Shown: positions 9,675-57,711, counted from the first letter of the stretch. The stretch is 64,000 nucleotides of DNA from Nitrosopumilus sp. (GCA_965218695.1 OZ244651.1:544001-608000), one strand, 5' to 3'. Translations and numbers: made by a program. The notes: generated by a model not told the origin, from the letters alone.

Positions 9675-9857
9675 GTGTTTGCTATACGGGGTCGGGTTAA
9701 AACGATTTCCGACAACTCAGGCATTATGTGCAAGCTGGATATACCTGTCCGGTTAGTACTATTGTGGATGGCGTCATGCAACGCCTGTATAATGGATAAT
9801 TGGGGTAGTTGAAGGCTCATGAAAACCCGTTTTTAACAGAATCGTCCACGGTGTTTC

Positions 9858-10630
9858 ATGAGCGCGTGTTCCTGCCCGTCCCGACCCCGGTACTGGACGA
9901 AACAGCAGGCGAGACCGTATGTTCCAAGTGCGCGTACGTGTTGGATTCCTCCATGGAGCAGCCAGGCAAGAACGAAAATTACTCCATGTTTGGCAGCCGC
10001 GCCTCGTCCACCCAAATCGTCGGAAGCAAAAGAATGCGGCGTGCAAGCCAGATGTCCAACAAGGTAGACCAGAAAAGGCTGAACGCGACCTACATGACAA
10101 AATCATGCTGCACCAAGCTCGGCATGCCGCAGGCAGTGGGAGACCGCGCCATGATTATGTTTGACAGGTTCCGGCATACGCTCCGCGGCAGGCGCCTGGC
10201 AGACCTGGTGGCCGCCACGCTCTACATGGCATGCAGGGAGCACGGCGTGACGCGCAGCATGAAAGAGGTGGCAATGGCAGTCAATGCGAACCGCAGGGGC
10301 GCAAAGCGCGCATACACCATACTGCATAAATCAATGGATGCAACCCTGCCGGTCCAGGACTCTGCCGGTTTTGCCACGCGGCTGGCATCTGATCTCGGTT
10401 TGCCAGAAAAGACTGCACGGAGGGCATTGAAAATACTGGAACAACTTGATGCTTCCGGCCGGGCCGAGGGGCGCAGCCCAATCACTCTTTCGGCGTACGC
10501 CATATACGCGGCCTTGGACGGCACGGAGGGCGTCACGCAGAGAAGGATAGCCCAATCCGCGGGAATAACTGACGTCTCGCTGAGGCTTCTGAACAAGGCG
10601 TTCGGGTCGCCGACTGGCACCGCATCATAG
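9858..10630 (+). CDS. tfb: Divergent transcription initiation factor IIB (TFB), with an apparent frameshift in the Zn ribbon
   Basis: GETVCSKC Zn-ribbon half; cyclin repeats LRGRR..LVAATLYMACR..R and AEGRSP..LSAYAIY..TQRRIAQSAGITDVSLR. The first CxC lies in another frame starting at ATG 9858. Confidence 0.85.
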
Positions 10631-45885: not shown

Positions 45886-46166
45886 GATGCATGTTGTGCG
45901 TGCTTTGCTAAAAACGCTTAGTTTCTCTGTGTTTCAAAATAATGGAATAGTCGTGGTGTGTGTGGGAGTAGATCATAATAATGATTAACAGAGTGCCACA
46001 CCATGAGATGTTCGTCAAGCAATCATTATGGCATTTTCTAAACCAAAACCATGTCCAAAACCTGATTGGTTATAGCGCAAACGCTATAATTTTTATGCAA
46101 TTCAACCGTTATACCATCATGATAGAGGAAAAAGGCCCTTTTATGCCGAGGAATGGTGTGGGGTAG

Positions 46167-47294
46167 ATGTTCGGAAGGAAGAAGAAGCAGAGACAGCAGG
46201 AGGTACCAGACGCCAATGTCCGCACCCACGAGTCCGGCTACATCATGCGGACCGGCGAGAACCTAGTACTGGCGCAGGAAGCCACGTCTCCAGAGGGCAA
46301 CGGCTGGCTGCTGGCGACCAACAAATCGCTTTTCTTCATCCATGGCAGCCGTGGTGTTTACCTGTACATTGATCACGGCATGATTAAGTCATTGGGAAAT
46401 GAGAAGGGTAGGATTACCGTCAAATGGTTGGAGAAGGGCCGGCAGTTCGAGTTCCAGATGAGGCTAAAGGACGGGTTTTATACGCCTGACGAGGCAGTCA
46501 ACATGCTCAACATGCGGTTCCAGTACACCGGACCTGCACTTGATCACGTCGAGCCGACTGAGAAGGAGATTGTAGAAGCCAGGAAAGACAGGCTTGAACG
46601 CATCGGGCGGATATTGGGAAACATACGGAAGGAAGTCAACAGGCTCCAAAAGAAGAAAGAACTGGATCAAAAAGAACAGAAGGACCTAAAACGGTTCATT
46701 TACCATCAAACCGTGGCCACCGGGAACGAAAAATGCATGATGTCCATGCCGTTTGTCCGTTCCGCCAAGGTTCCAGCGCGTATTCCACTCACTGCAGTTT
46801 GGAACGATTGCTACTTTGACGACAAGAGGAAGCTGTACGTTACGTTCCGCAAATTCCGCAACGGTTTAGGGCCAAAGACGCTGGCCGACCAAAAGGAGTT
46901 CAATCCTGACGGTGAAGGCACGGTATTTCCCATAGACATGGTAGATTTTCGTTACGGCTATCCTGCTATCGAAGTAAAGACCGAAGACGGGCACTATACT
47001 GCCAGTCTGTTATGCACCATGGCCGAGGAGATGATTACCGAAGAACTTGTCACTGCACTGTTGGGTACACACGTTTCCTGGGACAACAACGAAGAGGTGT
47101 ATATGGGGCGGGTCTGGTACGAAACCGAAGCCACGCGCTGGATAGGCGGCAGTTTCTTCAAGCTGACTGATGCCGAACGCGAAAAAGCGATAAAACACAT
47201 TCCGTGGCTGCGAAACACGAATGATCAGGACATTCCTTGGATCAAGCCGTACAAGATCATTCAGTTCGACAAAGAACAGGCAGTCAAGCCGTAA
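46167..47294 (+). CDS. Hypothetical protein; possible N-terminal PH-like domain and coiled coil
   Basis: GE.L....GWLLATNKSLFF pattern, then a charged helical segment. Confidence 0.7.
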   Translation: MFGRKKKQRQQEVPDANVRTHESGYIMRTGENLVLAQEATSPEGNGWLLATNKSLFFIHGSRGVYLYIDHGMIKSLGNEKGRITVKWLEKGRQFEFQMRLKDGFYTPDEAVNMLNMRFQYTGPALDHVEPTEKEIVEARKDRLERIGRILGNIRKEVNRLQKKKELDQKEQKDLKRFIYHQTVATGNEKCMMSMPFVRSAKVPARIPLTAVWNDCYFDDKRKLYVTFRKFRNGLGPKTLADQKEFNPDGEGTVFPIDMVDFRYGYPAIEVKTEDGHYTASLLCTMAEEMITEELVTALLGTHVSWDNNEEVYMGRVWYETEATRWIGGSFFKLTDAEREKAIKHIPWLRNTNDQDIPWIKPYKIIQFDKEQAVKP

Positions 47295-47300
47295 CCGGTG

Positions 47301-48074
47301 TCATTCATTCAAAAATATCTCTGTGCTTAGTGCATACTGCGCAAGCGCGTTTACCGCACGCATCTTGTCCTTACCGTTGCCTCCGGCTTGCTGAAACGCA
47401 ATCTCGGCGTTCCTGACGCACTCGGCGTATCCTGGAATCGCCATATATTGTTCGACCATGGGCGGTTCGACCCTTGTGATTACCGGAATGTTGAACCCGT
47501 ACTTCTGGCCGATGGACGAGTAAAACATCAGGAAGATCTCCGGATCGTCATGGTACGCGCGCAGCGCGTTCATGGTTTGCTTGACCGGCACCGTGCGGAG
47601 CATCTGGGTGTGCGAGATGAAATAACCGAGTCCGCCGTTCTGGGCAGGAACCATCATGTATTCGTAATCGTCTTTGCCTCCACTCCATTTGCAGTCCAGG
47701 CGCAAAAAGTTTCTCATGTTTGCTATCGTGCCGGCTATGACGTCCAGCACGTACAGGAGGCATCTCATGTCTGGATGCGAATGGTCCCTGGAAGAAAGCT
47801 TGCCGTTTGCTGCGTTTGTCGCGTTGAACATCCCCGCCACACCGTCAATCATTCCGGTAGTTATTGTAAGTCCAGCATCAGGCTTCTCGTCACCGAGTCC
47901 CTTTTTGTATCTTTGATAGTTGTTGGTTGGAATGTTGTGCCTGATGTGTATGTCGAACCTGGCGTGAAGCTCGTTCTTGGTGATCTTCCCGCCGCAGGCG
48001 CGGCATTTTTTACCAAACACGCCTTGCCGTTTGGTGTCATTTGGGAAAAGGCTTTGTGTCAGGGATTTGATCAT
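47301..48074 (-). CDS. Hypothetical protein with an N-terminal Zn finger
   Basis: KCRACGGKITKNEL ... HPDMRC. Confidence 0.7.
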   Translation of the reverse strand: MIKSLTQSLFPNDTKRQGVFGKKCRACGGKITKNELHARFDIHIRHNIPTNNYQRYKKGLGDEKPDAGLTITTGMIDGVAGMFNATNAANGKLSSRDHSHPDMRCLLYVLDVIAGTIANMRNFLRLDCKWSGGKDDYEYMMVPAQNGGLGYFISHTQMLRTVPVKQTMNALRAYHDDPEIFLMFYSSIGQKYGFNIPVITRVEPPMVEQYMAIPGYAECVRNAEIAFQQAGGNGKDKMRAVNALAQYALSTEIFLNE

Positions 48075-48177
48075 TGGTAGGTTTTGGACAGGCGTTCTGC
48101 ACTAAGTGAAGGACTGACTGTCTGACATGATTATTAGATACGACAAGGATAAGTACCATTTTCTTACTCTCTCTTGC

Positions 48178-48336
48178 ATGAGTTGTTGCATTTGTGGGGC
48201 TAGTGCTCCGTTCCTCGGTCATTGGGCAAAGTGCAGACTTTGCGGGGAAAGGGTGTGTCAGAAAGACGCCTGCCAGTTTAGCTGGCACGGCAAGCCCGCA
48301 TGCAAAAACTGCGTGAAATTAAAGACCGGCCAATAA
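48178..48336 (+). CDS. Cys-rich zinc-finger microprotein
   Basis: MSCCICG...KCRLCGERVCQKDAC...CKNC. Confidence 0.7.
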   Translation: MSCCICGASAPFLGHWAKCRLCGERVCQKDACQFSWHGKPACKNCVKLKTGQ

Positions 48337-48387
48337 GATTGGTCCGACGGCCATGTGGGGGTTTTATGCAAACCATGCACGGTGTCC

Positions 48388-49038
48388 ATGAAAATAGATC
48401 CGGACGACGTGGAACGCTACAAGGTGTTGTGGGGGGACGCGTGCCAGGTGTTGGCAACGTTAGTGCCAGGCAAGATAAACAGCATCTATGCCGAGATGTA
48501 TTCTACACCGGATCTGGGCCAAAGTTATGATGAGTTCCAGGCGTACACGCGCCGCTTTTGTGCCGTGTTGTACGACGTGCTTGATGGTTCAGGTTCCCTG
48601 TTTGTCGCGGTTGCGGAGCCGTACGTGGAATGGTATTGGAGCATGATGAAAGAGGCAGGCTGGATCAGGCAACATGATACCATGCCGGTCCTGCATTGCA
48701 CGAAGTCTGATAATTTTTACCGGAAGTTTGACGACATGCCACTGGTGGCGAAAGAAGACCAACATGCAAGGCAAACGCTGGCAGTGCGCGCCAAGGACGG
48801 ATTCTTTGACGCCCGACAGGTCGGCCCGCTTGAAGACATGGTATGCAGTGCATTCACGCCGCCCGGCGGCATCACGTTGGACCCCACCATGGGTTCGGGC
48901 ACGCACCTGGCAGCAGCGCTGCAGCGCGGCCGCCGGGCCATCGGCATAGACTGTGACATGAAGAGCGTCGGGATGACGTCGCGCAGGCTGGCATTGTTGG
49001 GAGGATGGATCCATCCCCAATCTGCAACACGTTCCTAA
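48388..49038 (+). CDS. Degenerate beta-class (N4/N6) DNA methyltransferase-like protein
   Basis: LWGDAC start, TLDPTMGSGT...GRRAIGID SAM-binding motif. No (D/S/N)PPY catalytic motif. Confidence 0.75.
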   Translation: MKIDPDDVERYKVLWGDACQVLATLVPGKINSIYAEMYSTPDLGQSYDEFQAYTRRFCAVLYDVLDGSGSLFVAVAEPYVEWYWSMMKEAGWIRQHDTMPVLHCTKSDNFYRKFDDMPLVAKEDQHARQTLAVRAKDGFFDARQVGPLEDMVCSAFTPPGGITLDPTMGSGTHLAAALQRGRRAIGIDCDMKSVGMTSRRLALLGGWIHPQSATRS

Positions 49039-49074
49039 CGTGGCCCTTATACCGTTTTCGCACACGTATTGTAG

Positions 49075-49188
49075 ATGGCCAAGCATGATTGGATCTATGA
49101 CTTGTCGGCGGACTGGAAATGCAGAAAGTGCGGCCACAACAACGGCAACACGATCCATGAAGAAGACTGGGACGGATGTCCCGGATAA
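49075..49188 (+). CDS. Zn-ribbon microprotein (37 aa, not in the ORF track)
   Basis: MAKHDW...WKCRKCG...DGCPG; CTTATA box upstream. Confidence 0.55.
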   Translation: MAKHDWIYDLSADWKCRKCGHNNGNTIHEEDWDGCPG

Positions 49189-49275
49189 CGCCCCAATACA
49201 AGTTCTGTTCAAAATTAGGGATCTTGGGTAAAACCCACCAACCAATATGTTGGAGTGCCACAATTGAGTAGGGTT

Positions 49276-50124
49276 TTATCGGAACATTCGACTCCGTGTA
49301 ATTACTAATTCCAACACCTTGTCATGGTGGGCGTTCTTCATGCGCACCGACACGGCACAGAACCCGAATTCCCGCACCAGTCCGGCAACCTCTGGGGAAT
49401 AACCGTTCGTCATCAGGAAATCCACGTCTGATTCTGCCAGCATCCCGAAGAACCTTCGGTGGTCGATGTCGCTGTGCCTGTATAGATTGGTGTTGCCTCG
49501 CCTGCCGCCAGCTGCATACGGCGGATCAATGAATACCGCAATCTTGCGGCCGCGTTCCAACGATTCCAGTGCGGCCATCCCGTCAGCCTCGTGGAACGTG
49601 ATCCTGTCTGCGTATTTTGCTATTGTTTGCAGGCGGCGGATCAACGTGTCTGGGTACCAGCGCGAACCTATCCCCTTCCGGTTCTCCCCGTTCTTGATCA
49701 ACGACGCCCGCTGCGTGAGTATGCCAAAGTTTCGCGTCCGGTTTAACACCAGCGTCCGAAATCCGCTGGTCTCTTGTTGTTCAAGCGCAAGCACGTTCTC
49801 GCGTGTCAGATTGAATTGTCGTATTTGGTCTATCATGGAATCTGTATCATGGAGCGCGTCTTTCCAGAACGCGGCCACGTCGTGGTCCAACTCGATCATG
49901 ATGCAGCATTTGGCCATGTCCTCCATGACCGACGTCAACGGCACTATTCCCCCGCCTGCAAACGGGTCCAGCAACACGTCTGGCTTTGCCTTGGAAAGCC
50001 ACTCGCGGATATGCGGAATGAACCACGTCTTTCCACCCGGATAGCGCAGCGGACTGCACTGCGGGATTGTCGAGACATTGACTGCTGGAAACGGTGACGG
50101 TGGAAAGTCCACTTCAAGATTCAT
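49276..50124 (-). CDS. DNA adenine methyltransferase (Dam/D12 class), no cognate nuclease nearby
   Basis: SPLRYPGGK, DPFAGGG, LNRT, FIDPPY. Confidence 0.92.
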   Translation of the reverse strand: MNLEVDFPPSPFPAVNVSTIPQCSPLRYPGGKTWFIPHIREWLSKAKPDVLLDPFAGGGIVPLTSVMEDMAKCCIMIELDHDVAAFWKDALHDTDSMIDQIRQFNLTRENVLALEQQETSGFRTLVLNRTRNFGILTQRASLIKNGENRKGIGSRWYPDTLIRRLQTIAKYADRITFHEADGMAALESLERGRKIAVFIDPPYAAGGRRGNTNLYRHSDIDHRRFFGMLAESDVDFLMTNGYSPEVAGLVREFGFCAVSVRMKNAHHDKVLELVITRSRMFR

Positions 50125-50218
50125 GCATGCATGATTCGTGGCATTTTTAAGCCATGTTCACGACAGCCGGCATGCCGGCAGCATGAAGTCCTTTTACGTA
50201 AGGCTGCACGTGCATGTG

Positions 50219-50338
50219 ATGGGAGCACCGGATTGCGACAAATGCGGGATGGACACGTTTCAGACAGCATGTTGCGGCACCGAAATTTGCGGGTGCACCA
50301 CGCACTGCCCCAAATGCAAGAAGAAAATTATCATGTAA
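50219..50338 (+). CDS. Cys-rich microprotein (39 aa)
   Basis: MGAPDCDKCG...CCG..ICGC..HCPKC; TTTTACG box 27 nt upstream. Confidence 0.65.
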   Translation: MGAPDCDKCGMDTFQTACCGTEICGCTTHCPKCKKKIIM

Positions 50339-50416
50339 CCGGCAGCCGTGCGGATGTCGTGAGTTCTGCCAGCCTTAAAAGCCGTACCAGCACCTACAAT
50401 TCATGGAGGCATTTGA

Positions 50417-51667
50417 TTGAGGTTTGCGCACATCTCCGATATCCACCTGGGATTCCAAAAGAACCCGGCGCTGCAGGACATCGAGCAGCATGTGTTCGAG
50501 GACGTGTTAGACAGGTGTATCTCCATGAATGTGGACTTTATCCTCATGCCAGGCGACATATTCCATGTGAATATCCCGCCAATGCGGGTCCAAAAGTACG
50601 CGTTTGCAAAGTTCCGCCAGGTGTATGAGGCCGGGATTCCGGTATACGTGGTGTATGGTAGCCATGACTTTTCCCCCGTGTCTGGCTCGGTAATCGACTT
50701 ACTGGCCTCGATTGGTTACATAACCAAGGTTACCAGGGCTGAAAGCAGCGCTGATGGCACCATATTACTGGACTTCATACGTGACAAGACCGGCGCAAAA
50801 ATAACCGGCCTGTCAGGACTCAAGGCGGGAAACGACCGCACGTACTATGAAAAACTAGACCGGGCGGTGTTGGAGTCCGAACCCGGATTCAAGATATTTC
50901 TGTTCCACGGCGGGATTGCAGAGATGAAGGACAACATGATAAACGAGGGAGAAATGATGCCGCTGTCGTTGCTGCCGAGGGGATTTTCGTATTATGCCGG
51001 CGGGCACATGCACGAGCAGAACGCCCAGAAGTTTGACGGGTACGCGCACGTCGTATACCCGGGCACGCCGTTTGCGGGGTTTCATTCCGACCTGGAAGAC
51101 AACGCCGGCGGGACCAAGAGGGGATTCTATGTAGTCGAATTTGAAGACAACGTCAAGTCAGTCGAGTTCATCCAGGTGGAAAACGCGTCGTACGGCATGA
51201 TTGACGTAAACGCCGAAGGCAAGCCCGCGGAGTCCGTGAATGCCGAACTGCAGCAGAGGACTGCCGACGCTGATCCAGCAGGCAAAATCATGATAATCAG
51301 AATTTCAGGCGAGATGGCAAATGGCAAGACGGCCGACGTGGACGTTTTGGCCGCGCAGGCCGGCCTAACACAAAGGGGCGCGGTGGCCACGCTGATCAAG
51401 AAGAACAAGCTAAAGTCAAAAGAGTACGAGATAACGCCAGTCAAGGGGGCTGACCGCAAGGAGATTGAGGCCGGCATATTTTTTGAGAACATCGGGCAGC
51501 TCCGCCTCGGCAGGGAGGATCTGGCCGGAGAGCGCGGCGTCGGCCTTGCAGTAACACTGCTCCACACCCTAGGGGCCGGACAGCTTGTCAACGAAAAGAA
51601 GGCCGAATACACAGACAGGATAAAGGAAGACGCGCTTGCAGCATTGGGGATGAATAATGATTCTTGA
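50417..51667 (+). CDS. mre11: DNA double-strand break repair nuclease Mre11
   Basis: HISDIHLG, GDIFH, GSHD, FHG, YYAGGHMH, YPG; overlaps rad50. Confidence 0.95.
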   Translation: MRFAHISDIHLGFQKNPALQDIEQHVFEDVLDRCISMNVDFILMPGDIFHVNIPPMRVQKYAFAKFRQVYEAGIPVYVVYGSHDFSPVSGSVIDLLASIGYITKVTRAESSADGTILLDFIRDKTGAKITGLSGLKAGNDRTYYEKLDRAVLESEPGFKIFLFHGGIAEMKDNMINEGEMMPLSLLPRGFSYYAGGHMHEQNAQKFDGYAHVVYPGTPFAGFHSDLEDNAGGTKRGFYVVEFEDNVKSVEFIQVENASYGMIDVNAEGKPAESVNAELQQRTADADPAGKIMIIRISGEMANGKTADVDVLAAQAGLTQRGAVATLIKKNKLKSKEYEITPVKGADRKEIEAGIFFENIGQLRLGREDLAGERGVGLAVTLLHTLGAGQLVNEKKAEYTDRIKEDALAALGMNNDS

Positions 51668-54077
51668 TTCCATCGTGGTTGAAAACATCCGCAGCTACGC
51701 GCACGAGGAGGTAGAATTTTCAACCGGAACGTCGTTGCTCGAAGGCGACATCGGCTCTGGCAAGTCGACCATACTGATGGCAATAGAGTTCGCGCTGTTC
51801 GGCCTGGGGGCGCAAAAATCAGAATCACTGCTGTCCAAAAAGGAGAGCGCGGGTTACGTGGTGTTGAAGTTCACAGTGGACGGCCACTCGTACGAAGTCA
51901 AGCGTGCGCTGAAAAAGACCACCCATGGAACAAACCAGAACCCAAAGGACTCGTGGTTCAAGCAGGACGGCGTGCACGAGCCCCTGTCGCCGTCGGAGAT
52001 CAAGCAGCGCGTACTGGAGATTCTCGGGTTCAACGAGTCCGCAGACCCCAAGACGGAAAGCAGGATCTACCGATATGCCGTCTTTACGCCGCAGGAGGAG
52101 ATGAAAAAGGTGCTGTCTGACTCCAAAAACCGCCTGGAGACAATAAGGAAGGCGTTCCAGATAGAGGAGTACAGCACTGCATGGGAAAACGCCAAGCTGC
52201 TGTCGTCGGATATCCGGACCAGGATGGCCGTGATGGCAGTAAGGTTTGGCAGTATTCCGGAACTGGAATCGATGATATCCGAAGTTGAAGATGAGATTGA
52301 CGCTGCCGACGCCAAGATCCAAGAAGGACGGGAGAGGCAAAAGAACATCGATGGCAGGATTGACGCTGCCGACGCCGAATTAAACGAGTTGCGAAAAAAA
52401 GACTCCACGAGGATCCGCCTGCAGTCTGAAATCGACGGCCTGAAAGGCAAGATTTCCGAAAGAACCAACATGGTGAAATGGATCAAAAACGGCATTGAGG
52501 AATCCAAAAAAGAGTTAGAAGAACTGGATGCCGACTACGACGAGAAGGCCAAGACAAAGGCGCCGGACACTAAAATGACGAGCTACGAGTTAACAGACGA
52601 AATAAAGAAGTTCCAAAAAATCAGCGAGGCCCGCGTGCAGACAGAGACGAAACTAAAGTCGGTCAAAACAGACCTGGCCGACATACGGGTAGAGCTTGGT
52701 GACATGGATACCAGCCTTGAATCTGCCAACGGTATGCTCGAATCCATGCAGGAGAAGAAAAAGACGTATGACGCGCAAGAGGAAAAAATACGGGCCGGGC
52801 TCGACTCTGCGCGCAGCCAAAAGACCCGCATGCAGACGAAAAAGGAAGGACTGGAAGACGAGATAGGCAGGTTTGCCACACTGGGCAGCAGATGTCCCAT
52901 GTGTGATCAAGATATAGATGAAAAGCACAACCACGCGATGGTCGATGACAAGAAGGCGGCCGTGCTGGAACTGGACAGGGAACTTGCCCAGACAGATTCC
53001 ACCATATCCCGGCTTACCACCGGGTTGGCTGAAAACGTGGAACTGCTGCGCGTGTGTGAGGACAAAATACCGCACATCCGGGAATCTATCAACGACGTCA
53101 AGTGGCGGGACGAACTGCAGTCTGACATTCCCAAGCTTGAAAAAGAGATAAGCGGGTTTGACTGCCAGTATTCTGAATTTCCCGGGGGGAATCCAATCGA
53201 GGTTCTGGGCAAACTCAAAGATGATGTGGCATCGTACGAACAGGTAGGATATGACATGGAGCGCATTGAGATTTCGAGGCGCAAGGTGAGGAACTATATA
53301 CAACGCAACCTTGAGGACATGGAGTCTGCAAAGTCGCAAATCTCAGAATGGCAGGCAGAACTGGCTCAGCATGAATCCAAGTTTGTCGTCATGGAGGACG
53401 TGACCGGTACGATAAAAGAGATTGAAGAAAAGACAGAAGGCCTGCGGGCCGAACTTGCTACCGTGGCTCACGACGTCACGGTGGCCGAAACCACCGTATC
53501 CAACAAGGAGGAAAACGCGGAATACTACAGGGCACAGCTTGCAGAATCCAAAAGACTAAAGGCGCTGCACGGCGAATCCTCCAAAACGCATGAATGGCTT
53601 GACAAGTTTTTCATGCCGGCCGTCAAAGAAATTGAAAAACAGGTGTTGCTGGACATACTGCAGAGATTCAACGCCAAATACCGCGAATGGTATTCGATGC
53701 TGGTCGACGATCCCACCAAGGAGTCAAGGATAGACGAGAACTTTACACCCGTGGTAGAGCAGGACGGGTACGAGCAAAAGGTGGATTTTCTCTCCGGGGG
53801 CGAAAAGACCAGCATAGCGCTTGCGTACAGACTTACACTGAACACGCTGGTCAGGGAGGCCGACTCGATAAAATCCAACCTGCTCATTTTGGACGAGCCC
53901 ACGGACGGCTTTTCCCAGGACCAGCTCGCAAAGGTGCAGGAGATACTGGACACCATCGACTCCGAGCAAATCATACTGGTCTCGCATGACCGCGAACTGG
54001 AGAACTGCGCCGATCACGTGTTCCAAATCTCAAAACACGACGGGATGTCAAGGATCCAGAAGGTCAGTGTTGGGTAA
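51657..54077 (+). CDS. rad50: DNA double-strand break repair ATPase Rad50
   Basis: GDIGSGKS, FTPQE, coiled coils, CPMC hook, LSGGE, LDEPT, VSHD. Confidence 0.96.
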   Translation: MILDSIVVENIRSYAHEEVEFSTGTSLLEGDIGSGKSTILMAIEFALFGLGAQKSESLLSKKESAGYVVLKFTVDGHSYEVKRALKKTTHGTNQNPKDSWFKQDGVHEPLSPSEIKQRVLEILGFNESADPKTESRIYRYAVFTPQEEMKKVLSDSKNRLETIRKAFQIEEYSTAWENAKLLSSDIRTRMAVMAVRFGSIPELESMISEVEDEIDAADAKIQEGRERQKNIDGRIDAADAELNELRKKDSTRIRLQSEIDGLKGKISERTNMVKWIKNGIEESKKELEELDADYDEKAKTKAPDTKMTSYELTDEIKKFQKISEARVQTETKLKSVKTDLADIRVELGDMDTSLESANGMLESMQEKKKTYDAQEEKIRAGLDSARSQKTRMQTKKEGLEDEIGRFATLGSRCPMCDQDIDEKHNHAMVDDKKAAVLELDRELAQTDSTISRLTTGLAENVELLRVCEDKIPHIRESINDVKWRDELQSDIPKLEKEISGFDCQYSEFPGGNPIEVLGKLKDDVASYEQVGYDMERIEISRRKVRNYIQRNLEDMESAKSQISEWQAELAQHESKFVVMEDVTGTIKEIEEKTEGLRAELATVAHDVTVAETTVSNKEENAEYYRAQLAESKRLKALHGESSKTHEWLDKFFMPAVKEIEKQVLLDILQRFNAKYREWYSMLVDDPTKESRIDENFTPVVEQDGYEQKVDFLSGGEKTSIALAYRLTLNTLVREADSIKSNLLILDEPTDGFSQDQLAKVQEILDTIDSEQIILVSHDRELENCADHVFQISKHDGMSRIQKVSVG

Positions 54078-54205
54078 CTCCGGTCATACTGAATATTCAT
54101 AGTCAGTGTAGATAGTCGGTACCGATACTTAGTATGGAATACCAAACAGAGTTCAAAAACCAACAACTGCTTGTGACAGTTAAGTGAAAAACGTAGATGC
54201 CAATT

Positions 54206-54280
54206 AGATCAGTAGCACAGTCTGGACAGTGCAGGCGCCTTCTGAGTGCCAGGTCGCCGGTTCGAATCCGGCCGGGCCCG
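54206..54280 (+). tRNA. tRNA-Arg(UCU)-like gene with a defective acceptor stem (probable pseudo-tRNA)
   Basis: D arm GCAC/GTGC, anticodon arm GGCGC-CT TCT GA-GTGCC and T arm GCCGG-TTCGAAT-CCGGC are intact. The 5' strand AGATCAG mispairs at three positions with the 3' strand CGGGCCC. Confidence 0.8.
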
Positions 54281-54312
54281 TCTCCTTTTATGTGAACCCA
54301 GCCATGTGGGTA

Positions 54313-55050
54313 TTGGTATTTTCGGCAAAAACCCACGGATCAGAGGACACCAAGGCCATAATAACATCAATCTCAACATTAGTCGAGGAGGCTACGTTCG
54401 TGGCAACCCCCGAAGGCATCACGTTTCGTGGAATGGATCCGTCGCATGTGGCGCTGGTTGACGTGAACTGGCCAAATTCGGCGTTTGAGCAGTATGACTG
54501 CAAAGACGAGGTAAAGTTCGGCGTCAGGATAGACGAACTGGCAAAGATCATCAAGCGGGTCGACAAGAAAGACGACATCGAGATCAGCATAGATAACAAC
54601 GTGTTGCTTTTGACTGTAGGCAGGAGCAAGAAATACAAGATTCGCCTGATAGAGAGCTCTACAAACGACACGCCGTTGCCAAAAATCCCATACGATTCCA
54701 AGATAGTTCTGAGGCACGGCAAGTTCGAGAAGATTCTTGGCGACGTGAACGTGGTGTCGGAATACATTGCAACGTATGCCGAAGGGTCAAAATGTTCGTT
54801 TTCAGGCAAGGGTGACAGTGGCGAGGTCGTGATCGAGGTGGATGCAGACGAGACAGAAGAAATAAGCGCCAAGAATCCAGGCGAGGGAACGTACAGCCTG
54901 GAATACCTTACGCCGATGGTAAAGGCGGTTGGCGGTGCGGGTGATAATGTGGTGTGCGAGTTTTCGGAGGCAAAGCCGCTGCGCGTGGAATTTCCAATAG
55001 CAGGAACCGGAAGAATACACTTCTACCTGGCTCCCAAAGTCAAGACCTGA
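54313..55050 (+). CDS. pcn: DNA polymerase sliding clamp PCNA
   Basis: ISTLVEEATF...GMDPSHVALV...YSLEYL...PL......G.IHFYLAP; TTG start 27 nt after TTTTATG. Confidence 0.97.
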   Translation: MVFSAKTHGSEDTKAIITSISTLVEEATFVATPEGITFRGMDPSHVALVDVNWPNSAFEQYDCKDEVKFGVRIDELAKIIKRVDKKDDIEISIDNNVLLLTVGRSKKYKIRLIESSTNDTPLPKIPYDSKIVLRHGKFEKILGDVNVVSEYIATYAEGSKCSFSGKGDSGEVVIEVDADETEEISAKNPGEGTYSLEYLTPMVKAVGGAGDNVVCEFSEAKPLRVEFPIAGTGRIHFYLAPKVKT

Positions 55051-55081
55051 CCGGCTTTTATGTGCATGGCAGCCATAATGC

Positions 55082-55402
55082 ATGGCGTGGGAAATTCCTG
55101 CAGCAGTAGTAGGATTGATGATGATTGTGCACGTACTGTATTTTGAAAAACGGTACGCGGCGTCGTGGAGGTTTTTCGGTTCTGTTGACGCAAAGACCAG
55201 CGTGAACAATTCCGCGCTGGCAGGCGCGCTGCTGAAAAAAGGGCTGGTCCGGGACGGCCTGTACGCAAACAGGGTGGCCGTAGTCGTCGATGGTATCTGC
55301 ATGGTTGGGATTCTGTCGTTTATGGACTCCGTGTCGGTATTGTTTGCATGCAGCATCATCCCGACGTACCTGTTTTTCAGGTGTTTTGTGGACACGGTGT
55401 GA
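55082..55402 (+). CDS. Small membrane protein
   Basis: Three hydrophobic segments; TTTTATG 26 nt upstream. Confidence 0.65.
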   Translation: MAWEIPAAVVGLMMIVHVLYFEKRYAASWRFFGSVDAKTSVNNSALAGALLKKGLVRDGLYANRVAVVVDGICMVGILSFMDSVSVLFACSIIPTYLFFRCFVDTV

Positions 55403-55408
55403 GCCTGG

Positions 55409-55450
55409 TATTGCATTGAAAGGTAAAAATTTTTACTTTTCAATGCAATA
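55409..55450. repeat. 42-bp near-perfect palindrome, copy 1
   Basis: TATTGCATTGAAAGGTAAAAA|TTTTTACTTTTCAATGCAATA (one mismatch). Confidence 0.95.
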
Positions 55451-55520
55451 TTTTTGCCCGGTCGTGGTGCTGGCTGGCGGTTCGCGGCCATGCATGATTG
55501 GCACGACGTCTGCAGTCACC

Positions 55521-55544
55521 GGCGGCGGCGGCGGCGGCGGCGGC
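55521..55544 (+). repeat. (GGC)8 microsatellite between the two palindromes
   Basis: Read directly from the sequence. Confidence 0.9.
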
Positions 55545-55646
55545 AACGATGCCAAGTCACCAGATTTCATCGCCTGATCAGACAGTGCTTGCACTGCGTG
55601 CCGTAGTTGACCCGCCTGTGCTTGCCGCAGTCGGCGCAAGCCTGGC

Positions 55647-55686
55647 GTCGCATTGAAAGGGAAAAATTTTTACTTTTCAATGCGAC
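55647..55686. repeat. 40-bp near-perfect palindrome, copy 2
   Basis: GTCGCATTGAAAGGGAAAAA|TTTTTACTTTTCAATGCGAC (two mismatches). Confidence 0.95.
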
Positions 55687-55770
55687 ATTTTTGTCGGCCT
55701 GCATGAATTTAGTACGGTCTAGCAACGTACGGCACAAAATTTCCTTTTATGCAGATTGGTTCTTCACCGC

Positions 55771-56106
55771 ATGAGCGTGCCATGTGACCAGATCATTGCA
55801 GGCTACAAGGTCGTGCTTTGCGACATCTGCGAGCGCGAGCTGGAAGACGAGACAAGCGCGCACGAGTCATGCGAGGCAAGGTATGACATACTCGTCGAAC
55901 AAAACCGCTGCATCAAGTGCGGGGGGGAAGTAAAAGGGAAGATGACTACGCATTATGAATGCCTCGGCATGCCGTACCTGGGATATGGGAACCCCAATGA
56001 GGAAACGGCCGTCGTGCTGTACAAGGGCGTGGCGCCTGAAACCCAACATGCTTCCGGTCGACAAACGCATGCCGCGCTGTTGCAGGATTTGCCGATTACC
56101 GGTTAA
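55771..56106 (+). CDS. Cys/His-rich hypothetical protein (double Zn finger)
   Basis: CDIC..HESC and CIKC..HYEC; TTTTATG 26 nt upstream. Confidence 0.75.
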   Translation: MSVPCDQIIAGYKVVLCDICERELEDETSAHESCEARYDILVEQNRCIKCGGEVKGKMTTHYECLGMPYLGYGNPNEETAVVLYKGVAPETQHASGRQTHAALLQDLPITG

Positions 56107-56174
56107 ACGAATCGGCGTTTTCCTTTAATCGGCGGCTTTCGGATTATACTACAGTATAACAACGACACTCATAA

Positions 56175-56357
56175 TTATCCGAATCCAGAGTATCGTATAA
56201 TGTCTGAACCACCAGTTGTACTTTGATATAATGGAATTCGGCCTGATGGGTGCGTGCGCAACATGCGGCCGCAGCACGGGCAGCATGGTTTGGGTGTATT
56301 GACCGAGCGCTCGCGGTTTGCGCATTTTTTGATGTCGGATTTGGCATGCGCCTGCAA
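56175..56357 (-). CDS. Zn-finger microprotein or remnant
   Basis: KKC...CPCCGRMLRTHP resembles a small thaumarchaeal CPCCG..LR..P family. Confidence 0.45.
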   Translation of the reverse strand: MQAHAKSDIKKCANRERSVNTPKPCCPCCGRMLRTHPSGRIPLYQSTTGGSDIIRYSGFG

Positions 56358-56364
56358 AAGCGCC

Positions 56365-56724
56365 TCAGGTCCCGCATTGCAACGGTTCTCTTGCGTCCGC
56401 CCATACGGCGCCGCCGTTCAGGTATACCGCACCGTTGGCAAGCAACCTTTCCAGGTATTTGCTTGCGAGCCTGTGCGACATGCCGTGCGTTTTGGCGCCA
56501 TCGGTTATGGCTTCTGCATACAATACAGTCCCGCAGTCCATTATCCGGCCAAGCAGCCAGTCCTTGTATGCAGGATAGCGCGGCGGGCGCTCCTCTATTA
56601 TCCTTGTCGCATCGCACTTGCTGCATACCTCGGCGTACTGCATGTCGCCGCACACGGCATCAGCGTCATGCGTCCATGCGTGGCAGCAGCAGCAGCCAAC
56701 GTCGTCTTGCATTGGTCTTGACAT
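56365..56724 (-). CDS. Hypothetical protein: Zn-binding N-terminus plus a winged-helix-like C-terminus
   Basis: CCCCHAW..CSKC; GMSHRLASKYLERLLANGAV; TTTTATG 26 nt upstream. Confidence 0.65.
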   Translation of the reverse strand: MSRPMQDDVGCCCCHAWTHDADAVCGDMQYAEVCSKCDATRIIEERPPRYPAYKDWLLGRIMDCGTVLYAEAITDGAKTHGMSHRLASKYLERLLANGAVYLNGGAVWADAREPLQCGT

Positions 56725-56763
56725 GTGTGGCAGGCGTGCGTGGCATAAAAAGACCGAATCCGA

Positions 56764-56979
56764 TCAGAGTTCGGTGCCGAACAGCAACGATGCCCCGAAT
56801 CCTGCCACAAACACGGCCACAGGCAAGACCATGCCAAGCCATATCGAATGAATCAGGTGCCTGCGCGCGGCCTCTTGGTTTTTGTCCTTCCACAGGACAT
56901 AGCAGACCAGGCCGGTGATTACCCAAAAGAACACGTGGCCGACGTACCATATCTTGGACGGCGTGGGTGATTGTTCCAT
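56764..56979 (-). CDS. Small 2-TM membrane protein (same architecture as 8521-8721)
   Basis: SKIWY...FWVITGLVCYVLWKDKNQEAARRHL..IWLG; TTTTATG 26 nt upstream. Confidence 0.75.
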   Translation of the reverse strand: MEQSPTPSKIWYVGHVFFWVITGLVCYVLWKDKNQEAARRHLIHSIWLGMVLPVAVFVAGFGASLLFGTEL

Positions 56980-57036
56980 GTCCCACGGATCCGGCCAGCA
57001 TAAAAGCCCTTTTTAACAAATGCCGTCTCTGCCGGT

Positions 57037-57711
57037 ATGCTGCAGGAACTGGTATTCTTCAAGAACACGTCCACATTGGACGAAACGCTGTACACCAGCC
57101 CGGCAGGAAAACTGTCAATACGGCAGACAATGATCCTCGGGATCGGGTGCGGCCTGGTCCTGATGGCCGCCATGTCTGCATACGAGGCAGACAACGATTT
57201 CATGGACGCGGTGTATTACCTGCCGTTTCTGGTGATCCCGCTGGCAATCGGCCTGTACAAGCCCAAGGTCCTGACGACAGACGAGTTGCTTTATTCAATC
57301 ATCATGTTTTTCATAAACGGATCCTCGGTCAAGCAGATTTCCAAGCCGAAAAAAACCAAAGGCAGGGGCGGATCCAGGGCGGCCAAAAACCCCAGCAGGC
57401 GCATGGGCTACCATTCATTGGAGCGGGAATACGTGCAAAAGGAGAAGACCAGGGTCGTCCCGGTGGCCGACTTGGGCAAGCCGACCAGGCTCAAGCTCAT
57501 GATACAAAAGCCCGGCGGCGGGGCCTTCAAGAACCATTTCGTCTCGATATACCTGGACGGAGTGCGCGTGACTGCAATGACAACAGACAGCGCAGGAGAA
57601 GTCGTGGCACTCGTGACGCCTGGAACTGAAGGCAATCATTCACTAAAAGTCATGGCGAAAGGATACGACGAACCCGTCATAGACGGCGACATCAGATTCA
57701 GGCGAGGATAG
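57037..57711 (+). CDS. PrgI/VirB3-like membrane protein with a C-terminal Ig-like domain
   Basis: LDETL....GKLSIRQTMILG followed by two TMs and K..V...DE (PrgI-like layout); basic linker; C-terminal VSIYLDG...TTDSAG beta-sandwich. Confidence 0.6.
   Translation: MLQELVFFKNTSTLDETLYTSPAGKLSIRQTMILGIGCGLVLMAAMSAYEADNDFMDAVYYLPFLVIPLAIGLYKPKVLTTDELLYSIIMFFINGSSVKQISKPKKTKGRGGSRAAKNPSRRMGYHSLEREYVQKEKTRVVPVADLGKPTRLKLMIQKPGGGAFKNHFVSIYLDGVRVTAMTTDSAGEVVALVTPGTEGNHSLKVMAKGYDEPVIDGDIRFRRG

Follow-up and report, generated by a model that had tools for sequence, protein, structure and literature searches.

Twin palindromic units in an acquired island of a Nitrosopumilus genome, tentatively read as a duplicated transcript-end element

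What role, if any, do two long and nearly identical palindromes play when they stand side by side in an archaeal chromosome? The question is raised by a 64,000-nucleotide stretch of a Nitrosopumilus sp. genome (GCA_965218695.1, OZ244651.1:544001-608000; hereafter the window, whose coordinates are used throughout unless a contig prefix, C1, C3 or C9, is given), in which two copies of a unit consisting of the flank AGCCTGG, a palindrome of 40 to 42 bp and the flank ATTTTTG lie on the plus strand at 55402-55456 (copy 1) and 55639-55693 (copy 2). The genome under study (G000, 2.63 Mb) encodes archaeal AmoA, and its host is thus an ammonia-oxidising archaeon; the closest genome compared is that of a sister organism (G002). 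A preliminary description of the window had proposed that symmetry or hairpin formation at the palindromes is under selection and had named as candidates a replication or transfer origin, recombinase or telomere-resolvase sites, partition sites and a structured RNA. We find that the twin units are a genuine, statistically unusual and lineage-specific hairpin repeat in an acquired island, which is read most economically as a duplicated transcript-end element. That they are tandem hairpin plus oligo-U signals, duplicated locally, is a function we infer from sequence and put forward tentatively, at somewhat less than an even chance.

The clean unit measures 55 nt, and the two copies agree at 49 of 55 positions, including all seven positions of the 5' flank AGCCTGG. 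Palindrome 1 (55409-55450) has 21-nt arms with one mismatch (G.T), an A5T5 centre and 21% G+C, and palindrome 2 (55647-55686) has 20-nt arms with two mismatches (the shared G.T and one G.A) and 35% G+C; neither has a spacer. Arm complementarity is 95% and 90%, respectively, in the repeat search, which, together with direct reading, bears out the earlier account of spacer-less palindromes with an AT-rich centre. The same search places the units in a direct repeat of 62 nt with 85% identity (55395-55456 and 55632-55693); the two copies reported earlier are both present, and their spacing, given as 238 bp, is 237 bp from start to start. In both copies a T5 run follows the stem directly, and further T5 and T4 runs lie inside the right arm. 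The common core and flanks likewise hold: the 34-nt core GCATTGAAAGG(T/G)AAAAATTTTTACTTTTCAATGC matched two sites as compared to none expected from 100 shuffles, and a covariance model, built from the two G000 copies only, scores them at 90.6 (copy 1) and 90.7 bits (copy 2).

Such palindromes are rare in this genome. A scan of all 2.63 Mb for arms of at least 16 nt with at most two mismatches found about a dozen loci, among which the twin palindromes rank about second and fourth, and of 53 A4T4-centred sites none besides the twin units has arms longer than 8 nt. The wider search for copies that the preliminary description had recommended, including the covariance model, yielded none further in G000 (3-mismatch pattern search, blastn-short and covariance model) and one homologue in G002. 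The exact core pattern had no match in the genome, metagenome and viral contig collections, a generalised pattern had none in viral contigs, and the units had none in phage and plasmid collections. The twin units are a lineage-restricted, hairpin-forming element of about 55-60 nt in direct orientation that falls in no described family. Other long palindromes in the genome, with arms of 17 to 24 nt (C1:988867-988911, 1005924-1005971, 2132294-2132328 and 2182585-2182622), lie just past the stops of ORFs of 290 to 396 aa, some of them transposase-like by eye, and two multi-copy palindromic families, one TGGTAAATTTTGGTGATCTGATCACCAAAATCTACCA-like (C3:7807, C3:10559, C9:6564, C9:29683, C1:1562831 and C1:2259648) and one represented by six copies of GACGAGTCGGCCTGCGTCGCAGGCCGACTCTTC (C1:220191, 274917, 470380, 790808, 1075420 and 2133840), are probably insertion sequence (IS) or miniature inverted-repeat transposable element (MITE) ends.

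The differences between the copies are as informative as the likeness. Six positions in or beside the palindrome differ (columns 10, 11, 13, 25, 48 and 50 of alignment A1), and four of them belong to two pairs with compensatory change (A-T to G-C and T-A to C-G), such that the outer arms read ATT...AAT in one copy and GTC...GAC in the other, with two pairs altered on both sides. When six random substitutions were simulated over 42 positions, at least two compensatory pairs arose with a probability of 0.003, in agreement with the compensatory change reported earlier; a covariation shuffle control is powerless with two sequences, as 130 of 500 shuffles attain the observed value. The proposal of selection on symmetry or hairpin formation is thus supported to the extent that dyad symmetry has been kept non-randomly, both between the copies and in the G002 homologue, where 15 of 18 stem pairs are held; it is not supported with regard to the DNA-level candidates. 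Because both copies carry the same G.T mismatch, they descend from one already imperfect palindrome and were not each perfected separately. On the plus strand this mismatch reads as a G-U wobble, and for this reason the plus-strand RNA folds about 5 kcal/mol better in both copies: -29.1 kcal/mol (z -7.0) versus -23.8 on the minus strand for palindrome 1, and -25.9 kcal/mol (z -4.35) versus -20.5 for palindrome 2. The DNA fold of palindrome 1 reaches -15.1 (z -5.6).

Copy 1 sits at the 3' end of a 106-aa hydrophobic orphan ORF (55082-55402, plus strand; codon score 0.29), the A of whose TGA stop is the first base of the unit, and the motif CTTTTATG at 55055-55062 lies 27 nt ahead of the ATG of this ORF. 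The palindromes had been described as lying downstream of PCNA, which is not directly so, as this ORF intervenes. It is conserved in metagenome relatives, three of which end at the same residue, and absent from all of 151 genus genomes. Copy 2 ends 51 nt ahead of a second CTTTTATG motif (55744-55751), which opens the next transcription unit (55744-56106, plus strand) with a 111-aa Cys-rich ORF starting at ATG 55771. The location of copy 1 at a stop codon and of copy 2 ahead of a promoter motif supports a role in ending transcripts, as do the T5 run after the stem, the plus-strand fold bias, the preserved stem pairing and the presence of nearby hairpins at stop codons; a short hairpin with a T-rich tail (56099-56115) lies at the stop codon of the 111-aa ORF, and a hairpin with 14-nt arms and a T-rich tail (C1:758185-758217) lies 15 nt past the stop of a paralogue of the gene at 57037-57711.

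On this evidence we propose that each unit would be transcribed from the plus strand into an A/U-rich hairpin of 18-20 bp, followed at once by U5, with the right arm adding further U5 and U4 runs. At the oligo-U, archaeal RNA polymerase would halt in concert with aCPSF1, and the units would act as transcript-end signals; a further role of the hairpin may be to preserve the 3' end of the RNA. In archaea, U-tracts are established sites of termination with aCPSF1 (PMC8716108). Copy 1 would close a single-gene unit composed of the CTTTTATG promoter and the 106-aa ORF, and copy 2 would represent a back-up stop that shields the next CTTTTATG promoter from read-through. The twin layout may have arisen by local duplication or insertion of a 237-bp piece (a 182-bp spacer plus one unit), which would have brought half a small zinc-ribbon gene along, with stem symmetry kept afterwards by pairing selection or by template-switch correction inside the palindrome.

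A number of observations weigh against a transcript-end role. Archaea are not known to need a hairpin for termination (PMC8716108), and in the genome at large the 70 nt past 1686 long ORFs fold like random DNA (mean -15.0 versus -15.8 kcal/mol), while T5 is weakly enriched after these ORFs (11.6% versus 7.4%). Between convergent genes, neither T5 nor the layout of an A-run followed by a T-run is in excess, and a consensus terminator scan lists neither palindrome. The invariant AGCCTGG flank is not accounted for by a terminator, and the strand-bias argument from the G-U pair depends on a single shared substitution. The homologue in G002 has only T3 after its stem and no upstream co-oriented gene, and taken alone its hairpin is no stabler than shuffles (z -1.0 to -1.8 for both strands, as RNA and DNA). 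Across the three copies, a stem with an immediate T tract is seen in both G000 copies, with T3 in G002, and the 3' end of a co-oriented gene is seen at copy 1, copy 2 following a non-genic spacer and the G002 copy lying between divergent genes. A search of the literature on palindromic terminators in Nitrosopumilus found nothing relevant.

Compared to intrinsic terminators and archaeal oligo-U/aCPSF1 signals, the units share a stem-loop, an immediate U5, a location at a stop codon and one before the next promoter, and they stand in tandem. Their stem, however, is very long (18-20 bp) and A/U-rich, whereas intrinsic terminators have short, G+C-rich stems; the units also have a conserved 5' flank, and other genes here lack such hairpins. 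Among the candidates named in the preliminary description, the structured RNA comes closest to the transcript-end reading. In Rfam the palindromes reached no family threshold, and E values up to 5 returned generic miRNA-hairpin matches of 17-26 bits, as compared to thresholds of 50-90.

Further insight comes from the G002 homologue, which was the one credible match when the covariance model was run over 100 other genus genomes (G002:C1:1937029-1937085; 32.4 bits, per-genome E 3.8e-4, full length). In its sequence, GCTGCCCGGATTTCCATTGAATGGGAAAAATTTTTCCCGCCCAATGGCAACTTTGCC, CATTG, GGGAAAAATTTTTCCC and CAATG are preserved, as are parts of the two flanks. An 18-pair stem is retained when the three sequences are folded jointly by RNAalifold, with three of its pairs broken in G002, and several stem pairs are changed on both sides relative to G002 (e.g., G-C to C-G beside CATTG). 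The homologue lies 4.7 kb from the syntenic empty site of the island and is contained in the 422 bp that separate a minus-strand TnpB-like gene from a plus-strand 84-aa ORF; the G000 orthologue of the 84-aa ORF has no such palindrome upstream. Weaker matches in five AT-rich genomes (G043, G022, G099, G012 and G024; E 0.006-0.1) looked on inspection like chance AT-rich hairpins and were set aside. The generalised pattern matched two of 401 family genomes (G000 and G002), with none for the reversed control; since this pattern was written after G002 had been seen, its G002 match is circular, and the result is one of lineage restriction, not independent support for the G002 copy. Near the homologue, at G002 C1:1933150-1936784, two TnpB-like genes (448 and 482 aa) are inserted beside the syntenic empty site, and their G000 orthologues lie elsewhere (C1:620211 and 128669).

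Comparison of the three copies also brings up an alternative that we consider unlikely, namely that the palindromes act as double-stranded DNA, as a dyad bound by a dimeric protein and serving as an operator, a centromere-like site or a replication-control site of the island. Such a protein would read half-site blocks of the form CATTG-N3-(G/A)G(G/T)AAAAA, with CATTG and GGGAAAAA as the conserved blocks, and all six half-sites of the three copies do keep CATTG and G-AAAAA at fixed spacing. The N3 spacers of the G002 copy (AAT and GGC) are not complementary, and the hairpin there is, as noted, no stabler than shuffles. Two of the three copies lie 50-150 nt upstream of gene starts, an A5T5 centre is bendable, and iterons and parS clusters likewise consist of direct repeats in accessory DNA. 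However, no DNA-binding protein is common to the G000 and G002 contexts; the 111-aa Cys-rich ORF and a neighbouring 119-aa ORF match no family and are not in G002, so that even a DNA-binding fold in their products would fail to account for a site present in both genomes; compensatory changes at the stem base point to a constraint on pairing rather than on reading; and three copies are too few for a recognition motif, and the generalised pattern's G002 match is circular.

The 182-bp spacer between the units (55457-55638; 67% G+C) has no homologues besides a 56-nt block related to a zinc-ribbon gene. This block falls in a minus-strand ORF of 28 codons (MRRQACADCGKHRRVNYGTQCKHCLIRR; 55567-55653, or from ATG 55704), which encodes ...CADCGKHRRVNYGTQCKHCLIRR and corresponds to the C-terminal CxxC...CxxC half of a family of Cys-rich proteins of 45-50 aa with four CxxC pairs. 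The ORF matches the family member P0001 (C1:654181-654327) at E 2e-4 with 50% identity over P0001 residues 27-48, and its codon score (0.03) is ambiguous. At the DNA level the homology extends over 56 nt (79%) and stops at 55638, with copy 2 beginning at 55639; no counterpart of the N-terminal family half is present, nor was one found beyond copy 2. The missing half and the edge of homology at 55638 indicate that the ORF is most likely, to judge from its sequence, a fragment of a small zinc-ribbon gene and that the left edge of copy 2 is a real junction. The family has further members at C1:1127047-1127178, in a tandem set at about 639.3-640 kb and in G002 (C1:1732011-1732157), and P0001 is 92% identical in G002; no description of this family was found with the analyses used.

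The statement that this DNA contains no convincing ORF accordingly needs qualification: it is only partly correct, as the minus-strand ORF is homologous to half of a protein family. The spacer is not a transcription unit of its own, since no YTTTTATG motif precedes any of its ORFs. A 44-codon plus-strand ORF (55443-55577), which includes Gly8, may be coding, its codon score of 0.166 exceeding the 95th percentile of wrong frames (0.037) and falling below the true-frame median (0.37); the encoded protein had one low-complexity match only among 1.84 billion representatives and no homologue. A 56-aa minus-strand ORF likewise had no homologue, and none of nine spacer ORF sequences (three of them queried as DNA ranges, one including the stop codon, which may have made that query miss) occurs as a called gene in the protein collection. 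The spacer also contains the triplet tract noted between the palindromes as (GGC)8, which was found as a (CGG)8.3 run at 55520-55544. Contigs of one metagenome run (X3) stop at 55510 and 55554, on either side of this run, while three other runs cross it unchanged; the breaks could reflect length heterogeneity or an assembly effect.

A spacer of this kind is compatible with the view that the units have no present function, being the outcome of local duplication or insertion of filler DNA with symmetry kept by intrastrand template switching (quasi-palindrome correction). The spacer, made up of half a gene and a triplet run and devoid of a promoter motif, looks like junk; there are only two copies in the genome and one, partly decayed, in the sister genome; the region is heavily rearranged and IS-dense; and, as the two compensatory pairs are only 2 nt apart, a single template-switch event could explain both. 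This explanation also seems improbable to us, in that flanks and 34-nt core are unchanged between the copies whereas no duplicate of the spacer is detectable, that a homologue can still be recognised in another species, close to the syntenic empty site, and that one mismatch is common to both copies, which shows that symmetry is not just being made perfect.

Conserved single-stranded flanks beside a covarying stem are a signature of hairpin-reading enzymes, and the units might be single-strand hairpin sites of a DNA-processing enzyme, such as REP/RAYT elements, the ends of IS200/IS605 elements or of their transposase-less derivatives (PATEs), integron attC sites, or rolling-circle or transfer origins. 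The unit occurs in three contexts with unrelated flanks, copy 2 begins exactly where the truncated-gene homology stops, in G002 the palindrome is found 245 nt upstream of a TnpB-like gene, and an AT-rich, spacer-less centre favours extrusion. With respect to IS200/IS605 ends and PATEs, the likeness extends to a short segment enclosed by two similar, identically oriented hairpins and to the TnpB gene beside the G002 homologue. However, no Y1/HUH transposase (PF01797) was found in either G000 or G002, while the control was positive in 6 of 14 named genomes, and neither genome has TnpA; none of the four TnpB loci of G000 has a related hairpin, and the units are unrelated to the ends of these resident elements. 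The TnpB elements of G002 and G000 are homologous only up to a point about 75 nt upstream of tnpB; the palindrome lies beyond it, outside the part common to both elements, and no second hairpin was found at the other end of the G002 element. Moreover, the units are confined to a single locus, and both copies share both flanks, whereas left and right IS ends differ.

Other enzyme-dependent site classes fit no better. The REP and BIME elements of enterobacteria are mobilised by RAYT and are thought to stabilise mRNA 3' ends or to attenuate transcription; they too are imperfect palindromes of about 40 nt that have conserved flanks, follow stop codons and occur in pairs, but the units number two per genome rather than hundreds, have the same orientation, and occur in an archaeal host with no RAYT/Y1 gene. 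Integron attC sites are hairpins conserved in structure and variable in sequence that follow short promoter-less segments and have conserved outer flanks, with the core consensus RYYYAAC ... GTTRRRY (R''/R'); by reading, the units contain no GTTRRRY or RYYYAAC core sites, and neither an integron integrase nor an array accompanies them, with no integrase within about 160 kb. Outside the two units, the flanking sequences have no direct repeat in common that would represent a target-site duplication, and the units do not appear to be the end of a known MITE or IS, as there are two copies in 2.63 Mb and blastn-short finds the units only. With regard to the recombinase site proposed earlier, no recombinase is encoded in the window, and among the PF00589 matches in G000 (C9:5211; C1:2263145, 1607371 and 762853) the nearest, at C1:762853, is about 163 kb away, weak and below the Pfam cut-off; unlike dif, att and lox sites, the units have a symmetric A5T5 centre and no asymmetric spacer of 6-8 bp. 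Neither excision of the 238-bp unit nor fold-back reads, both of which the preliminary description had advised looking for, were borne out, as no joints and no excised or inverted form were seen in four metagenome runs; these runs come from one study, have contigs identical to the window and may include the source of the assembly itself. The copy number is two. We regard a hairpin-reading enzyme as a rather unlikely explanation.

The remaining DNA-level candidates can be dealt with more briefly. Like telRL and cruciform-type plasmid or phage origins, the units are palindromes of some 40 bp that lack a spacer and are AT-rich at the centre, but they are two direct copies in a chromosomal island without fold-back or joint reads, no protelomerase (PF16684) was found in G000, which leaves the telomere-resolvase proposal without its enzyme, and no relaxase, Rep or partition family was found among the ORFs scanned, which speaks against a transfer or partition site. 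A chromosomal replication origin, with ORB-like inverted repeats around an unwinding element, might be suggested by the AT-rich palindrome centres, the nearby PCNA gene and a GC-skew minimum about 80 kb away. Yet the sole Orc1/Cdc6 (Cdc6_C) gene, at C1:1,999,660, is 1.4 Mb off, the DNA between the palindromes has 67% G+C, and there is no GC-skew switch at the palindrome site (599.5 kb), the cumulative skew of contig C1 being lowest near 520 kb and highest near 2.35 Mb, with several phases. In addition, the whole island is missing from G002 and the nearby PCNA is an accessory copy. An origin is hardly credible.

The island that carries the units spans about 9.6 kb (47294-56906) and is absent from G002: the window matches G002 at 85% over 46129-47293 and at 83% over 56907-57709, and these flanks are 163 bp apart in G002 as compared to 9.6 kb in G000. 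It comprises two minus-strand ORFs without assigned function, an N6/N4 methyltransferase, a Dam-like methyltransferase, Mre11, Rad50, a tRNA-like element, PCNA, the 106-aa ORF, the palindromes, the 111-aa Cys-rich ORF and the 119-aa Cys-rich ORF (minus strand). The island Mre11, Rad50 and PCNA are 70%, 54% and 69% identical to chromosomal copies, which lie at C1:52.5-56.2 kb (Mre11/Rad50) and at 1.949 Mb (the orthologous PCNA); the chromosomal PCNA of G002 is 97% identical to this second PCNA of G000. A hairpin-processing Mre11-Rad50 pair had been pointed out near the palindromes, and it is indeed present, but as a second, island-borne copy, and nothing ties its function to 40-bp palindromes. 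The island is horizontally acquired; no att-like direct repeats are seen at its ends and no integrase inside it. It exists in other strains, since a Rad50 of the same 90% cluster is found on metagenome contigs together with the 106-aa ORF, the 111-aa ORF and the gene of the right flank; the island proteins P0003-P0006, P0008, P0009 and P0015-P0017 show the same island genes on metagenome contigs of 17.9 kb (P0003, P0004, P0008 and P0015), 18.0 kb (P0009, with P0011), 41 kb (P0005 and P0016) and 133 kb (P0006 and P0017). A search for related loci returned one weak, unrelated locus in metagenome contigs and none in genome or viral contigs. The tRNA-like element (54206-54280), between Rad50 and PCNA, passes the Rfam threshold with 42.7 bits, but has three of seven acceptor pairs mismatched and is not called by ARAGORN; it could be the remains of a tRNA or a scar left by integration.

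This setting allows for one more reading, in which the island would be a thaumarchaeal mobile element of an undescribed type with its own PCNA, Mre11 and Rad50, and the units would be its cis-acting hairpin or cruciform sites for replication, transfer or recombination, read by an enzyme encoded by one of the uncharacterised island ORFs; the covarying stem base and the invariant flanks would be the recognition code. We give this reading a small probability. Pfam, NCBIfam and PHROGs gave no family match for the neighbouring ORFs, including the 111-aa and 119-aa Cys-rich ORFs (in one family scan, minus-strand ORF queries lacked the first residue and included the stop codon), and the proteins of these ORFs have no relative or only one to align. 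A term search of Krupovic et al. 2019 (PMC6563490) gave 0 occurrences of PCNA, Rad50, hairpin or "origin of replication".

The promoter side of the transcript-end reading rests on the motif YTTTTATG, which has 10 matches in the window versus 4.2 expected; five of these precede ORF starts by 27-29 nt or lie a short way ahead of PCNA. On the plus strand the pairs of motif and start are 46138 and 46167, 55055 and 55082, and 55744 and 55771, on the minus strand 56751 and 56724, and the motif at 54285 precedes PCNA, where its position favours TTG 54313 over ATG 54304 as the start codon. By analogy with archaea in general, the motif suggests a TATA-type promoter and leaderless mRNAs. The window as a whole is dense in transposase or insertion-sequence genes (several of the IS66 family, DDE_Tnp_1, DDE_Tnp_4, DDE_3 and rve) and in restriction-modification genes; it also encodes an MmeI-type enzyme, a second large methylase-specificity fusion, a TFIIB paralogue (9809-10627) and a T2SS-F-like membrane protein.

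If a DNA-level reading were true, the units would represent the first cis-site of an island class in thaumarchaea for which there is as yet no understanding of replication and transfer. If the twin units are instead transcript-end signals, the finding would be a small addition, namely that an archaeon reliant on U-tracts uses a long hairpin carried in on foreign DNA, and it would provide a natural case for asking whether termination or 3'-end stability in archaea is helped by RNA hairpins. More important than the palindromes themselves may be their context, as the island equips an ammonia oxidiser with a second set of Mre11, Rad50 and PCNA that is 54-70% identical to its own.

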